Shown here: positions 1,422 to 18,920 of the stretch, one piece after another
Layout of the letters: each line of letters starts with the position of its first letter
How positions within the stretch are numbered: the first letter of the stretch is position 1
Source of the DNA: a virus
Taxonomy: Duplodnaviria > Heunggongvirae > Uroviricota > Caudoviricetes
IMG/VR virus record: IMGVR_UViG_2563366839_000008
Direction: 5' to 3' (one strand)
Length of the DNA: 20,624 nt
Notes under the pieces: model-generated
What the model was told of the DNA's origin: nothing
The model's input: the letters and a program-made list of their open reading frames with translations, nothing else
Databases searched by the model: none
Made by a program: the position numbers and the translations under genes

Positions 1422-3893
1422 TTAAAAATCAGCCTGATTCGGGATCAGTTTTTGCCAGATAACTGAAACGTATTTTGCCTGGTAACGGGCGTCATCAAGT
1501 GCATTATGGCGCTCACCTTCGAATGGAATAGCCGTTCTGGCATCGAAGTCTATGGCTTTCCCCAGCTCAACGATTGTGCGTACATCGCGATCGTTGTAGT
1601 AACGCCACGGGCAGGGGATCCCCTGCCGTTCGTATGAACGGCGCAAAATCGTGTTGTCGAAGTTGGCTCCATTTCCCCAGACCTGAACAAAAAATTCGCC
1701 GGAGTTTTCGTCGATAAATTCCCGCAATTGCAGCAGTGCATCATCTAACGGGATTTCATCGGTCAGAATGGCAGATTGCGCCTCCCGTGATTGCTTAAGC
1801 CACCATTTAATGGTGCCACGATCAATGACTCCGCCAGCAGTATCCATATCGATGGTCTTACTAAATTCCGGCCCCATATCTCCGGTTTGCGGATCGAAAA
1901 ATATTGCACCTATTGAGATAAGCGGGGCATCGGGATTTTTTCCCATGGTTTCAAGGTTGATCATCATGTGGTGCCACATTCTGCTGGTGGATGTGATAAC
2001 GTGATGACCGTTCATCGCAATTAAGGGATCTGCCGTCTCGCCAGTTTCACTATCGCTGGCGTGATCCTGAGCGCTACCAGCATTCTCCTTGTGTGGATGT
2101 TCAGCGCCTTCCATTTCCTTCGGATCATTTTCCTGAACTTCAACCTGATTCTCTTCATCGAATGTTTCCTGGTATGTTGCGTCGCCCATTACCGCGCCAC
2201 AATCAGGGCAGTTGCCACCACCGCTTTGACCGCAGGCGGTGCAGACTTTTTCCGGTTCCTGTTGCGCTACTGGCTCAGGTTGTTTCGTTTCTGGCTCGTT
2301 TTGTAACGCATTTGGGCTGTTTTGTTCCGCTTTCTGGCCGTTCTGTTCCGTTTCTTGTTGGTTCTGATTCACTGAATCGCGGGTTTCAATCCCCTTCACC
2401 CATTTCGGATCATTCGGGTCGCTAATCCCTGCAACAAATTCACCACGTGATACAGCAAGCAACTTATTGGCGTCAGGCTGGCTGATATTGGCTGCCTGCA
2501 TAATTTTGTTTACTTCGTCAGCGGTAACTTTTACCGGCTCTGGTTGTGCGATCGTGTCAGATGCACCAGTATTTTGTTGTGAACCTGAGTATGTACTGTT
2601 TTTGCGGGCGAAATATTCTTCTTTCGTGATTTCAGTAGCCCCGGCAGCCAGCGCCTTATCCAGACCAGAAAGTTTGTTTGCGCGACCGTATTTTTCGCCA
2701 TCCTTGTCGGTGAAGAGGAAGTAGAACGGCCCTTCACGCTCTACAGATGGTTCGACTTCCACTTTGCATTCGGTTTTTTCGTTGTCCGGAATTGCCGTTT
2801 CCACTGCATCAGTTTCTGGTACTGGCGACGAGAGAGTATCAGTTGCGCTCTGATTTCTTCCTTCATCTTCAAACACGCCCTTTGTAGTCAGGTATTCAGT
2901 AATGTATTTGTTCAGTGCCACAGGGTCTTTGTGAATGTCGATCGGACGTTCACGGACAAGGCCAAAAATAGTCTGGCGGTCGTAGCGAAGGGCATCAGGC
3001 TGTTTGCGCATTGATGCCGAGATACGCTTCCAGTCTTCGCGGTCGTTGTCGATAACTTCATTTTTTGCCCAGCGATGGATGCTGCCGTCAATGTTTCCGG
3101 CATCCACATCACCAGGCCAGAGAGCGTAGGCCAGTTCGTCATCCAGTGTTTTCCATGTCTGCTTGTATTCGCGATGAATGGCAGCAATGACCGGGCTGAT
3201 TTTTCCTGTTGAATTTTCACTGTGCTGTTGATTGGTTCTGGCGCGGGCGAGATCAACAACAGACGTGTATTTTCCGGTTTCCTTGCGTTCACCTTCGCGA
3301 CGTTTTTTCCAGATGCGCATCTCTGCCTGAATTTCGGGCCATTTGGCACCAGGCTTACATTTATGCTTAACCCACCCGATGGCATGCAGCTTAAGCTCCG
3401 GATACATGGCGTTAACTTCTGGCATTTTCATCAACGCTTCAACGATATGTCCGTCGAATGTTGCCATGTCTTCCTGCAACAATTCCTGTGCGCTAATAAC
3501 CATATCAACGGTGATGTTTTCACATGTGTCGAACTTAACCATGACAGCGTTCTGTACTTCAGGGGCCAGCTTGTCAAAAGTGACGTTCATCGGATCGGAT
3601 TCAGTCTCAACCGGGACAAAAGAAGCAGACTCCTCATCCCAGCGGTTTTCCTGCATATATTCAGCATCCCATGAATCGAGGGCAGGGCGGGGTATGCCAG
3701 GTTTATCCTCGCAGACAATAAATTTATAAGCGCAGTCCTGAGCAGCCGGATAATGTTCCAGGAACTGCCAGTGAAATTTTGCTCGAGCACGGCGTTCGTC
3801 GCCAACTTCAATGGCTGTGGCTACAGCCACAGCGCCTTCTTCCCTTGTTGCCAGTTCGTCAGGAATAGCGGCGCAAATAAAGACTTTACTCAT
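1422..3893 (-). CDS. Large early-left protein (YdfE / exodeoxyribonuclease VIII-like), 823 aa, with Q/E-rich linker, CxxC..CxxC zinc ribbon and C-terminal DEDDh-like 3'-5' exonuclease domain
   Basis: Long uninterrupted ORF. C-terminal motifs WGNGANFDNTIL (Exo II-like) and HNALDDARYQAKY (Exo III-like H-x-A-x-x-D-A); internal CTACG...CPDCG zinc ribbon. Sits at the ydfE position after dicB-ydfD. Function inferred from motifs and synteny. Confidence 0.8.
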   Translation of the reverse strand: MSKVFICAAIPDELATREEGAVAVATAIEVGDERRARAKFHWQFLEHYPAAQDCAYKFIVCEDKPGIPRPALDSWDAEYMQENRWDEESASFVPVETESDPMNVTFDKLAPEVQNAVMVKFDTCENITVDMVISAQELLQEDMATFDGHIVEALMKMPEVNAMYPELKLHAIGWVKHKCKPGAKWPEIQAEMRIWKKRREGERKETGKYTSVVDLARARTNQQHSENSTGKISPVIAAIHREYKQTWKTLDDELAYALWPGDVDAGNIDGSIHRWAKNEVIDNDREDWKRISASMRKQPDALRYDRQTIFGLVRERPIDIHKDPVALNKYITEYLTTKGVFEDEGRNQSATDTLSSPVPETDAVETAIPDNEKTECKVEVEPSVEREGPFYFLFTDKDGEKYGRANKLSGLDKALAAGATEITKEEYFARKNSTYSGSQQNTGASDTIAQPEPVKVTADEVNKIMQAANISQPDANKLLAVSRGEFVAGISDPNDPKWVKGIETRDSVNQNQQETEQNGQKAEQNSPNALQNEPETKQPEPVAQQEPEKVCTACGQSGGGNCPDCGAVMGDATYQETFDEENQVEVQENDPKEMEGAEHPHKENAGSAQDHASDSETGETADPLIAMNGHHVITSTSRMWHHMMINLETMGKNPDAPLISIGAIFFDPQTGDMGPEFSKTIDMDTAGGVIDRGTIKWWLKQSREAQSAILTDEIPLDDALLQLREFIDENSGEFFVQVWGNGANFDNTILRRSYERQGIPCPWRYYNDRDVRTIVELGKAIDFDARTAIPFEGERHNALDDARYQAKYVSVIWQKLIPNQADF

Positions 3894-3986: not shown

Positions 3987-4178
3987 TTAAAGACCTGCCG
4001 GGATTTCGATATTATCCTGGTGAATAACTTTATCGACCGGGTAACAGTTACCGGGAATTTTCTGTTCGGTTGCTGCAGTCATACACTCCTGCATTGTCCT
4101 GTGAACACTGACTGCAATATCAACTGGCTCTCCGGAAACAAGAAAAACTGTCAGAACAAGTGCAAATGCTGTATTCAT
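3987..4178 (-). CDS. ydfD: YdfD-like small protein (63 aa, N-terminal hydrophobic segment; Qin-prophage lysis-associated protein family)
   Basis: Translation MNTAFALVLTVFLVSGEPVDIAVSVHRTMQECMTAATEQKIPGNCYPVDKVIHQDNIEIPAGL matches recalled YdfD. ATG overlaps the dicB stop (ATGA), indicating coupling. Confidence 0.75.
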   Translation of the reverse strand: MNTAFALVLTVFLVSGEPVDIAVSVHRTMQECMTAATEQKIPGNCYPVDKVIHQDNIEIPAGL

Positions 4179-4363
4179 TGCCAGCATCCTTTTTGTATCG
4201 GACGTAAACGGGCCAGCATTGAAAGAATGCATATTTTATTTAATAGCTCCCGTTCGTGTTTTCTCTTGTTAATGGCATCTTCAGTAAATACAGGGTTACT
4301 GATAGTGACACCAATTTCAAAACAACCTTCAGACGTATTAACGTTTGGTAATAACGTTTCCAT
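4175..4363 (-). CDS. dicB: DicB cell-division inhibitor (62 aa)
   Basis: Translation METLLPNVNTSEGCFEIGVTISNPVFTEDAINKRKHERELLNKICILSMLARLRPIQKGCWQ closely matches recalled DicB. SD GAGGA lies 7 nt upstream of the ATG at 4361-4363; directly downstream of dicF. Confidence 0.85.
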   Translation of the reverse strand: METLLPNVNTSEGCFEIGVTISNPVFTEDAINKRKHERELLNKICILSMLARLRPIQKGCWQ

Positions 4364-4537
4364 TATCGCGTCCTCAACAATGAATTTTGTGATGCGGTGC
4401 CTGGTGCCTCCAGGTGACGTTAACCAGTTAACAATTAACGCCGGATACAGAGAATCCACCCATAACACTGTTTTTGGTTTTAACTGTTCCGCGTGCGCTC
4501 AGCCGCATTCACCACATCACAAAATTCACTTTAAAAA

Positions 4538-4590
4538 GGGCGGCAGAGCAGTCACGGAGTAAAACTGATACCGCCAAACGTCACCAGAAA
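4538..4590 (-). ncRNA. dicF: DicF small RNA (53 nt; antisense regulator of ftsZ and other mRNAs)
   Basis: Minus strand reads TTTCTGGTGACGTTTGGCGGTATCAGTTTTACTCCGTGACTGCTCTGCCGCCC followed by TTTTT, matching recalled DicF including its 3' terminator hairpin (GGCGG/CCGCC). Upstream of dicB as in the Qin dicB operon. Confidence 0.85.
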
Positions 4591-4925
4591 ATTGATAACA
4601 GAGGGCGTTGCAGCGGGGTTGTCACTTAAGCGTATGGTCAACCTGACAACCCGGTGTCCTCAACGGGGGAAGGAATAACCCCGCCATACTTACCGCCGCG
4701 CCATTTCGCGGATTGCCACAACCGGAAACGCACGGTCGACGAAAATTTAACGACAGGCTATCTATGAACCAGCTACCTCGCCGGGCGCTTTCGCGTTATG
4801 GTCTGACTTTTCAGGGAAATATCCTTTCAGTAAACTGTCAGTGCCGGATGCTCACCCGTGTCCGGCGCACGCACTCCACCTCACCCGTGGAGAACTCCTT
4901 AATCACCAACCCTCAGGAGGGTGAA

Positions 4926-5201
4926 ATGTCGACTGAAAATGATGAAATCATTAACTCCCTGATACGCCAGATTAATAATTTTGATAAAGCATTGCAACAT
5001 GCTGCGGCGCGTAGTGATATAACTCTTTTAGCAATTTCATTTCTTGCATCTGTTATGGATAAAAATGAAGTCGTACGACAGAGTCTTGTTGATTATATCG
5101 ACTCGCTTCAACCCGGCACTTTCAATCATGAGAGCTTCAATCATGAGAAAGAGCATGTTAAGTCTGTAATTAATTCTCTTATTTTGAATCAAAAGAATTA
5201 A
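4926..5201 (+). CDS. Hypothetical protein, 91 aa, AT-rich, convergent with the repressor-side operon
   Basis: ATG at 4926 preceded by a strong SD (CAGGAGGGTGAA-ATG). Coding sequence is markedly AT-rich relative to its flanks. Its 3' end overlaps the 3' end of the minus-strand 110-aa gene. No recognisable domain. Confidence 0.45.
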   Translation: MSTENDEIINSLIRQINNFDKALQHAAARSDITLLAISFLASVMDKNEVVRQSLVDYIDSLQPGTFNHESFNHEKEHVKSVINSLILNQKN

Positions 5202-5511
5202 TGCTTTTTGTTGCAAAGTAATTTTCAAGGGGTTCTATTCGAATCCCTTTCTTTTTCATTAACAAGCCAAACCCCTTATCAATGATGTCCATTAGATCCA
5301 GGAAGTATTTTTCATGTAAATCCTGGTTATCAGAGAGCTGCTTCTCTTCGTACAGCCCGATAAAGGCTCGGCGTACGTTACCGGATATATTGTCGATGGT
5401 TTCTTTTTCTACGGTACTCAGGTCAAGAGTCGCCAGTTGAGAGCGAACCACATTCGATGCCATTTCCTGGAATGGTACTGGTAAATCTTTAAATTCCATC
5501 GTCAACCTCAT
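5179..5511 (-). CDS. Hypothetical protein (110 aa; 106 aa from second ATG) in the repressor-side operon
   Basis: First ATG overlaps the ydfA-like stop (TGATG coupling). Second ATG at 5497-5499 has SD GAGG 6 nt upstream. No recognisable motif; occupies the rex/sie-type position downstream of cI. Confidence 0.6.
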   Translation of the reverse strand: MRLTMEFKDLPVPFQEMASNVVRSQLATLDLSTVEKETIDNISGNVRRAFIGLYEEKQLSDNQDLHEKYFLDLMDIIDKGFGLLMKKKGIRIEPLENYFATKSINSFDSK

Positions 5512-5663
5512 CAGTCAGTGTTTCTGGTTAACCAGCGACGCGCGCCAGCTTCAGTTTTAAACGTTTTGCTTCTGGTATACGTCATCGCGGTGAACGTACC
5601 GTCCTGGTTGGGGAACACGCCACATACCAGAGATTCGCTGTTGCCAAGATCGATAGTATCCAT
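5511..5663 (-). CDS. ydfA: YdfA-like small protein (DUF1391 family), 50 aa
   Basis: Translation MDTIDLGNSESLVCGVFPNQDGTFTAMTYTRSKTFKTEAGARRWLTRNTD resembles recalled YdfA. SD GAGG 7 nt upstream of the ATG at 5661-5663. A longer in-frame start at 5744 exists, but its N-terminal extension looks non-protein-like. Confidence 0.65.
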   Translation of the reverse strand: MDTIDLGNSESLVCGVFPNQDGTFTAMTYTRSKTFKTEAGARRWLTRNTD

Positions 5664-11478: not shown

Positions 11479-11689
11479 AAACGGTTTGCGGGAAAAGGAG
11501 AGTTAAGTAGAATTGCAGCGGGTGCTTGAGGCTATCTGTCTCAGGCATGAACACCAAAAGGCAGATAGAGAAAAGCCCCAGTTAACATTACGCGTCCGGC
11601 AAGACGCTTAACATTAATCTGAGGCCATATCTATGCTCTACACACGTAGGTTAGCCTCTTACGTGCCGAAAGGCAAGGAGAAGCAGGCT

Positions 11690-11845
11690 ATGAAGCAGCA
11701 AAAGGCGATGCTAATCGCCCTGATCGTCATCTGTTTAACCGTCATTGTGACGGCACTGGTAACGAGGAAAGACCTCTGCGAGGTACGAATCCGAACCGGC
11801 CAGACGGAGGTCGCTGTCTTCACAGCTTACGAACCTGAGGAGTAA
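11690..11845 (+). CDS. hokD: Hok/Gef-family type I toxin (HokD/RelF-like), 51 aa
   Basis: Translation MKQQKAMLIALIVICLTVIVTALVTRKDLCEVRIRTGQTEVAVFTAYEPEE matches recalled HokD; SD AAGGAG 8 nt upstream. Structured leader at 11480-11689 and a 3' hairpin at 11853-11877. Confidence 0.85.
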   Translation: MKQQKAMLIALIVICLTVIVTALVTRKDLCEVRIRTGQTEVAVFTAYEPEE

Positions 11846-18173: not shown

Positions 18174-18464
18174 ACAACGAATCCTTCTGATCTGCTTTTG
18201 CGGGGCTTTTTTGTATCCGCTCCATGCCCGGCGTATAAGCGGAGGTTGGTCAGTTTTCTAAAAATTGAAATACCTCACAATTCAGCCAGTTAATGGTTGT
18301 TTGTCTGGCGAAGAGTTTGTAAATAAAAAAACGCATGGTGAATCCCCCTAAGCGGCGGGGCGAATCAGCAGTCAGTTCTGGGATAATCGCGGGTTCGTAT
18401 GCTGATGCCGGACTCACCGGGAGGCACCCGGCACCATGCATCATGGTCATCCCCTTGTATGATA

Positions 18465-18488
18465 CCCCTCTCCGGAGGGGTATTTTTT
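18465..18488 (+). terminator. Rho-independent terminator
   Basis: CCCCTCTCCGGAGGGG hairpin followed by TATTTTTT. Confidence 0.55.
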
Positions 18489-18920
18489 GGATAAAAAAGC
18501 CCGCGCTGGGAGGCACGGGCGGCAAGGAATAAAACGTGAAGAAATTTTCACAGGCGCATAATAATCCGATGTTGCCAGATTTTGCAACTGCATCATCTGG
18601 TTATTATGTGAGCTGGAAAATCAGATTCTGTATGGACTGAAGCCATGCTGTTATTTAGGGCCAAAGAGCTGGCTTTTTCCCGCCTTCTCTCCAGTAACGA
18701 TTAATGAGAAAAGAATGAAATGCTTTTCCTGGGGAGGAGGGCAGTAGAAAAAAGAACCCGCCAGCAAAAATATGGGGGATGAACAGCTTTTGCTACTCAG
18801 GTTGCTGGCGGGTATGGTTCTTCATGAAATAAGAATGTTACGCGGTATTTTTAATGAAAATGATAATTATTGTCAATTGGTTGTGCGTATTTTTTCATAC
18901 ATGACTGGTAAAGGTGATTC

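Follow-up and report, generated by a model that had tools for sequence, protein, structure and literature searches.

Why should a prophage carry a small gene that runs head-on into its own early operon, just ahead of the sRNA DicF and the cell-division inhibitor gene dicB, and what might such a gene do there? The question is raised by a 91-codon open reading frame in a window of 20,624 nucleotides (the whole stretch of DNA analysed here, IMG/VR virus record IMGVR_UViG_2563366839_000008, Caudoviricetes), which had been described in a sequence-only reading of the window. The window is a lambdoid prophage with its integration site adjoining ompW; over the region its sequence matches that of E. 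coli O112ab:H8 NZ_CP062910 at 100% identity, and the "PPompW" prophages are close to it.

Results

The early-left operon of this prophage lies on the minus strand and runs from the repressor region through a DUF1391 gene, a 106-aa gene and an untranslated stretch of ~330 nt to DicF, and then on to dicB, a DUF1482 gene and an exonuclease. The DUF1391 gene (ydfA/ydaF-like; 5511-5663, minus strand; annotation and Pfam PF07151, E=6.6e-27) is the first early gene, DicF occupies 4538-4589 on the same strand (Rfam RF00039, 76.7 bits) and dicB is annotated at 4175-4363, again on the minus strand. DicF, the ~330-nt untranslated region, dicB and the DUF1482 gene are near-identical to those of the dicBF operon of K-12 Qin (ydfABC-dicF-dicB-ydfD). 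Unlike Qin, which has neither of them, the window carries the 106-aa gene and the convergent 91-aa gene in place of ydfB and ydfC. The 106-aa gene directly follows the DUF1391 gene, with no ydfB or ydfC between the two. The sequence-only reading had noted that these two genes are not evident on the minus strand and had raised the possibility that ydfB/ydfC-like minus-strand frames might yet be the true genes of this interval. The alignment to K-12 Qin, in which nothing between ~4913 and 5510 is homologous, confirms that they are missing and speaks against that possibility. Sibling prophages that do have ydfB and ydfC carry them in addition to the two-gene cassette and upstream of it.

Between DicF and dicB lies a sub-threshold STnc100-like match (4386-4526, minus strand; 38.4 bits against a gathering score of 47, E=1.2e-6), and a full STnc100 copy is found at 18304-18492 on the plus strand. 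The same prophage encodes a sok antitoxin RNA, of the hok/sok type I toxin-antitoxin locus, at 11520-11695 on the plus strand (117 bits). DicF itself is a swappable cassette, in that sibling loci carry unrelated short sequences ending in the same kind of terminator and keep the upstream leader (L023, L042, L063, L066, L079, L082, L024, L081 and L087 in alignment A6; further cases are L097, 2715-2775, and L100, 2625-2680). A hairpin formed by GGGTTGTCA...TGACAACCC is kept in most of these DicF-replaced loci and is missing from Salmonella L097.

The convergent gene starts with an ATG at 4926 on the plus strand and stops with TAA at 5199-5201, giving 91 aa, and it is annotated in RefSeq as a hypothetical protein (WP_000102678.1). 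A Shine-Dalgarno sequence, AGGAGG (4915-4920, plus strand), stands 5 nt before the ATG, and the earlier description of an intact 91-codon frame with a strong Shine-Dalgarno sequence holds. The gene had also been called AT-rich, and rightly: its GC content is ~36% as against 54-59% in the leader (4600-4900), with 45-50% in the early genes. We estimate from base frequencies that a 91-codon frame would stay open by chance at this composition with a probability of ~0.001. The minus strand is free of genes over 4926-5178, so the frame does not stay open as the shadow of another gene.

The DNA of the frame is carried by 198 of 5426 complete E. coli genomes, and the frame is intact in all 32 sampled alleles of this type, one of which has an in-frame deletion of 15 nt. 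A 15-nt tandem duplication (FNHES/FNHEK; 5121-5150, plus strand) is reduced in some alleles by the in-frame loss of one copy (L004, P0004 and P0005). Two sub-alleles differ at 44 of 276 nt, and their dN/dS of 0.28 in the frame of the gene is the lowest of the six frames. Taking this sequence evidence together, we regard 4926-5201 as coding for a real protein.

Comparison of related loci leads us to read the site as a polymorphic slot, flanked by the last small early gene on one side and by the conserved DicF-type sRNA leader on the other, with its gene opposing the operon. Among the 5426 complete E. coli genomes, the 91-aa gene (A allele) occupies it in the 198 genomes already mentioned, a 73-aa frame (B allele, phrog_7249) in 88 and 92-aa relatives (D allele, phrog_18692) in 127, including EPEC E2348/69 and EAEC 042. 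A 100-aa frame (phrog_8894) is found in sibling prophages and a 77-aa frame (phrog_10348) in the isolated phage Evi. Every allele begins where it meets the conserved leader, at the sequence ...CTCAGGAGGGTGAAATG or one close to it, and this Shine-Dalgarno/ATG junction is common to all of the non-homologous alleles, those of 73, 77 and 100 aa among them. Every allele also points towards the early gene before it, and the 3' ends of the two overlap. Prophages with an empty slot have the early gene joined straight to the leader with nothing between. We are highly confident that the frame is a real gene in a polymorphic slot.

The partner in this overlap is the 106-aa early-operon gene (5179-5499, minus strand; phrog_6937, the "MEFKD..." family; PGAP and PHROG alignments). 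The convergent overlap with a minus-strand gene reported by the sequence-only reading is present and amounts to 23 nt (5179-5201), with one amendment, namely that the partner has 106 aa and not 110: the start is most likely at 5499 rather than 5511, because PGAP and all PHROG alignments begin at 5499. The partner is a mosaic. Its residues 1-55 are constant across PHROGs 6937, 1363, 2151 and 9419 and its C-terminal part is exchanged (P0076, P0110 and P0116 are such mosaic relatives). This C-terminal part varies with the D, E and F alleles of the slot, and does not differ between loci with the A allele, loci with the B allele and loci whose slot is empty.

We take the 91-aa protein to be a distant relative of phrog_18692, and we count its family as present in three phage backbones, on the following sequence comparisons. 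An hmmscan search gives a weak match to phrog_18692 (E=0.022), colinear over nearly the full length (residues 9-88 against profile positions 6-89 of 92), as compared with E=5e-62 for a D-type protein. A colinear frameshifted frame in a sibling locus reaches a Smith-Waterman score of 50-60 where shuffled sequences give 27±5 (p<=0.001). A profile search then recovered intact relatives of 92-98 aa from E. coli and Salmonella at ~27% identity, and as the recovering profile contained one D-type sequence it is not an independent test of the kinship between A and D. BLASTP gave no alignment of the 91-aa protein to the phrog_18692 relatives. The two share genomic position, orientation and the upstream leader with its Shine-Dalgarno junction, and the 92-aa proteins (for example WP_000358771.1, in EPEC E2348/69 and EAEC 042) resemble the window protein further in length and in predicted helical layout; unlike them, the window protein belongs to a separate sub-family restricted to E. 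coli.

The first of the three backbones is of the DicB type (the window, EPEC E2348/69 and EAEC 042), another is a RecE/YdaE-type Salmonella prophage, where the 92-98-aa relative is the lone opposite-strand gene in the early operon, and the last is a P2-like element (Cox, C-type repressor, integrase), where it is likewise the lone gene on the opposite strand. In all three there is an overlap between the 3' end of the convergent gene and the early gene before it. Salmonella phage 118970_sal3 has a distant relative of the 73-aa protein placed in the same manner. The D-type alleles are frameshifted in 8 of 58 sampled copies, to 27 aa in seven and 68 aa in one (L094, L095, L152 and others), so the family is dispensable and sometimes decaying. 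STMMW_26411 of Gifsy-1 was considered as a further Salmonella relative and dropped, as a tblastn search with P0147 against the phage collection, in which Gifsy-1 is perhaps not included, came back empty.

Direct searches place the A type in E. coli only: phmmer against 1.84 billion representative proteins returned close E. coli copies and nothing else, tblastn against 50,697 phage records gave no match, and one scan of species-representative genomes gave no confirmed relative. Nothing significant was found in Pfam, NCBIfam or PADLOC, and the weak phrog_18692 match was the only one among the PHROGs. The PADLOC models gave for the 91-aa protein only BrxA (E=0.014, 12.7 bits), which we take as chance, and no match for the other slot alleles; models of defence, toxin and DNA-binding proteins likewise gave no match to the 91-aa protein. 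A profile search of PDB sequences found nothing, and Foldseek with the 91-aa model gave no match with E<0.1 in the PDB or BFVD. AF2 modelled the protein poorly from the single sequence (pLDDT 61.6); with a nine-sequence alignment it gave three helices at a pLDDT of 76.3. By eye there is no hydrophobic stretch long enough for a membrane segment. The product is thus predicted, from this model, to be a soluble three-helix protein. Literature searches with the protein accessions came back empty. The homology and structure searches that the sequence-only reading had proposed thus yielded the phrog_18692 relatives and no significant fold, domain or defence match.

We turn to the leader between DicF and the convergent gene. 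Its larger, distal part (4590-4840, minus strand) is the conserved "long untranslated region" upstream of DicF that has been described for the dicBF operon (PMC5069750). It is 97-99% identical to the ydfC-dicF spacer of K-12 Qin, a prophage with no gene on the plus strand here. Stx2c phages, the cdtI phage and P1, where it is annotated as a "dicF-like region", also have the core of the leader, and Rac shares this core only, the proximal hairpins described below not being in Rac. As a separate observation, the core (~4599-4722) is widespread in phages without DicF (records of P1, P7, SJ46, Stx2c phages and the cdtI phage). The structured GC-rich leader attributed to the 91-aa gene therefore belongs to it in small part: the proximal ~85 nt do look like a structured plus-strand 5' UTR, and most of the remainder (4594-4840) is the dicBF untranslated region. 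The hairpin singled out earlier at 4617-4651, GGTTGTCA/TGACAACC, does exist, with 9 bp at 4616-4652, and is part of the same conserved dicBF region.

Over its full length, 4590-4925 has no significant folding advantage over shuffles, whichever strand is folded (z -1.35 on the minus strand, -1.87 on the plus strand). RNAalifold gives -76.8 kcal/mol for the operon strand against -56.8 kcal/mol for the plus strand; the sequences of the whole-leader alignment vary too little to reveal covariation, and G-U variants are about as frequent as A-C ones. Searched at a permissive threshold, Rfam offers no family for 4590-4925 on either strand.

The proximal 100 nt folds significantly, and does so on the plus strand only (z -3.59, against -0.59 on the minus strand). 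The same holds across four Qin-type loci, the plus-strand z being -3.59, -4.05, -3.75 and -2.95, with none of 200 shuffles as good, and the minus-strand z -0.59, -1.16, -0.21 and -1.65. The folding of the proximal leader is strand-specific. This segment of ~100 nt accompanies the convergent gene into Salmonella L097 and the P2-like L100. Hairpin H1 of the putative 5' UTR (4841-4868, plus strand) has 11 bp including three G-U pairs, which would be A-C mismatches on the minus strand, and it shows one C-to-U change that still pairs on the plus strand only. Hairpin H2 (CUCCAC/GUGGAG; 4874-4892, plus strand), predicted by folding, gives way to another hairpin, unlike it in sequence, in the E-allele locus L096.

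The last element (4895-4924, plus strand), a candidate for sequestering the Shine-Dalgarno sequence, which H3 covers, has two alternative pairings. In the first, an anti-Shine-Dalgarno CUCCU (4895-4899) pairs with AGGAG (4915-4919); in the second, the minimum-free-energy hairpin, 4903-4907 pairs with 4920-4924. In the first helix one pair changes from U-A to A-U in three related sequences out of 13, and none is broken; its covariation score of 0.069, against 0.030 in shuffles, rests on that one pair. These observations support the view that the ~85 nt upstream of the ATG behave like a structured plus-strand 5' UTR.

A weight-matrix scan suggests where the corresponding transcript might start. 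The top site in the 420 nt upstream of the gene is a candidate sigma-70 promoter, TTTTCA (4808-4813), a 17-nt spacer and TAAACT (4831-4836), at 4808-4836 on the plus strand; its score of 9.25 is not above the 90th percentile of window shuffles, and a stricter consensus scan of 4594-4925 gave no promoter. The position of the best site is the same in seven of seven loci examined: its -10 ends 88-94 nt ahead of the start codon, immediately 5' of H1. In the P2-like L100, where the upstream sequence is unrelated, the best site is an extended -10 (TGTTATTAT) at the same position, and Salmonella L097 is alike. From the sequence we would predict a transcription start at about 4842-4844 and a 5' UTR of about 83-85 nt, and we lean slightly towards this model of promoter and 5' UTR. 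K-12 Qin keeps the promoter-like element and H1/H2 in the absence of the convergent gene (L002 ~3090-3140, equivalent to window 4808-4892). Either this predicts an orphan antisense promoter facing ydfC, or it weakens the promoter argument; since the elements are kept in gene-less Qin, they may serve a minus-strand RNA or be relics.

Downstream, a terminator-like hairpin (5227-5249) with a T-run (together 5227-5259, plus strand) follows the stop codon at a distance of 26 nt, within the 106-aa gene. The evidence for it is weak: one such site is found where 1.7 are expected by chance, it is also there where the slot is empty, and the D-type loci have no counterpart. With a candidate start at ~4842, the transcript of the gene would be antisense to operon RNA upstream of DicF, from the 106-aa gene as far as the distal leader. 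The sequence-only reading had it antisense to the precursor of DicF, which would hold for that upstream part and would not for DicF itself, as the transcript would stop short of overlapping it. DicF is made in K-12 Qin, too, and its biogenesis can thus do without the 91-aa gene, which Qin lacks.

Discussion

Our analysis suggests that the 91-aa gene is an accessory ("moron") gene expressed in the lysogen from its own weak promoter, in a slot of Qin/Rac-like prophages equivalent to that of sieB. We give this reading a probability of roughly 60%. Three things speak for it: the gene opposes the lytic operon, its slot holds many unrelated alleles, and in Rac the same place is taken by sieB. The gene order of K-12 Rac is racR, ydaG, ydaF (DUF1391), convergent sieB (with a 4-nt overlap), the sRNA KilS and kilR. 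Like sieB there, the 91-aa gene is the lone gene opposing the early-left operon, its 3' end overlaps an early gene (of DUF1391 type in Rac), and next come an operon-strand sRNA (KilS; here DicF) and a cell-division inhibitor (kilR; here dicB). The likeness to SieB is positional only, there being no Pfam, NCBIfam or PHROG match that would make the 91-aa protein a SieB homologue. SieB is a membrane-associated protein of ~162 aa; the 91-aa protein, unlike it, is shorter, predicted to be soluble and helical, and without sequence similarity to it.

In prophages, genes encoded antisense to a lytic operon are as a rule accessory loci that the lysogen expresses, an example being STMMW_20121 of ST64B, a moron encoded antisense to the lytic operon (PMC7067206). 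The 91-aa gene resembles morons in being inserted between genes that are adjacent in relatives, in its deviant GC content, in its opposite strand and in its candidate promoter and terminator. It differs in that the putative promoter and 5' UTR seem to belong to DNA that also serves as the sRNA leader, and not to have come in with the insert. As an element it is of an ordinary kind, a prophage accessory gene that is already annotated as hypothetical.

How might such a gene work in this place? We infer the promoter, the timing of expression, the interference with the operon and the function from the arrangement described above. Transcription would begin near 4842 from the gene's own weak promoter (-10 at 4831-4836), and the 5' UTR of ~83 nt would fold into three hairpins, the last of which would mask the Shine-Dalgarno sequence. 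Expression would take place mainly in the lysogen, where the early promoter is repressed. On induction, transcription of the early operon would collide with the gene's promoter or occlude it, and the early-operon RNA would be complementary to the 91-aa mRNA. Interference with read-through into dicF and dicB is geometrically possible, and it would be useful because DicF and DicB are both toxic when expressed (PMC5069750). For the 91-aa protein the likeliest class of function would be one that benefits the lysogen, such as superinfection exclusion or defence; this is put forward tentatively, by analogy of position only, and we consider it possible rather than probable.

Two arrangements known from small-RNA loci were considered and set aside. 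A type I toxin-antitoxin pair of the hok/sok kind would have a hydrophobic toxin of fewer than 60 aa, and the protein here has 91 aa, is predicted to be soluble and helical and has no long hydrophobic stretch; the overlap with an antisense sRNA expected of type I systems would also be absent, DicF lying clear of an mRNA with a predicted start near 4842. DicF acting as a cis-antisense (sas-like) RNA on the 91-aa mRNA is disfavoured too, as the best plus-strand promoter candidate lies 250 nt downstream of DicF.

What if the protein were secondary, in line with the suggestion of the sequence-only reading that convergent transcription could modulate DicF/DicB expression, and the convergent promoter with its antisense transcript served in the lysogen to damp leaky read-through of the early operon into dicF/dicB? 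The predicted transcript (~4842-5257) would indeed be complementary to the part of the operon RNA that precedes DicF, Qin (which lacks the frame) and empty-slot variants retain the promoter-like element and H1/H2, and the toxicity of DicF and DicB (PMC5069750) would give such damping a purpose. However, at least five unrelated slot sequences all keep an intact frame at a strong Shine-Dalgarno sequence, the dN/dS is 0.22-0.28, and the frame persists across three backbones in relatives of 27% identity. An antisense role alone would not select for intact frames led by a Shine-Dalgarno sequence and under purifying selection, and we judge this explanation unlikely. The frame could also be a chance or decaying, unexpressed one in the spacer of the dicBF operon. 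This idea would agree with the want of a recognisable domain, with the narrow distribution (the A type in E. coli only) and with the frameshifts in some D-type copies. Set against the chance of ~0.001 for such an open frame, the strong Shine-Dalgarno sequence, the purifying selection, the in-frame indels and the distant homologues kept in three backbones, it seems to us very improbable.

A further explanation makes the gene and its overlapping neighbour an antagonistic pair, in which the 91-aa protein expressed in the lysogen would harm phage that enters or replicates (or the cell) and the early-operon partner would neutralise it on induction. There is a precedent in the sieB/esc/sas genes of P22 and lambda; in P22 Esc neutralises SieB (PMC12197685). 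Such a pair would account for the C-terminal part of the partner changing together with the D, E and F alleles, for the D-type gene having a homologous partner domain at its side in E. coli and in Salmonella alike, and for the 3' ends always overlapping. The linkage is not strict, however, since one partner type, phrog_6937, accompanies the A and B alleles and the empty slot alike; the similarity of the partner tails may reflect the antisense overlap alone, and no toxin, antitoxin or defence model matches. We therefore hold such a pair to be improbable as well.

More ambitiously, the ~330-nt DicF leader could be seen as a two-faced module that moves between backbones, setting interchangeable sRNAs (DicF, KilS and others) on one side and equally exchangeable, lysogen-expressed effectors on the other. 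Its operon strand would deliver trans-acting sRNAs, and the distal end of the opposite strand would provide a promoter and a 5' UTR that masks the Shine-Dalgarno sequence. Convergent transcription and an RNA duplex of ~400 bp would couple the two strands, such that in the lysogen the effectors would be on and the toxic dicF and dicB locked, with the reverse after induction. The effectors, namely the 91-aa family and the 73-, 77- and 100-aa proteins, would then be new exclusion or defence proteins. This extension is speculative, and we think it rather less likely to be right than wrong by a wide measure.

Returning to the accessory gene in a sieB-equivalent slot, we note that, as far as the searchable literature goes, a convergent slot of this kind, with many alleles that share a control region with DicF-type sRNAs, has not been described. 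If the slot is sieB-like, it would constitute a compact and recognisable hotspot that E. coli and Salmonella prophages carry, in their hundreds, beside a DicF-type sRNA, and at least five small uncharacterised protein families would become candidates for new exclusion or defence functions. If true, the untranslated region of the dicBF operon, whose conservation is puzzling, would gain a second job, as a promoter and 5' UTR for the opposite strand, and a layer of convergent transcription would be added to the control of the toxic DicF and DicB genes.
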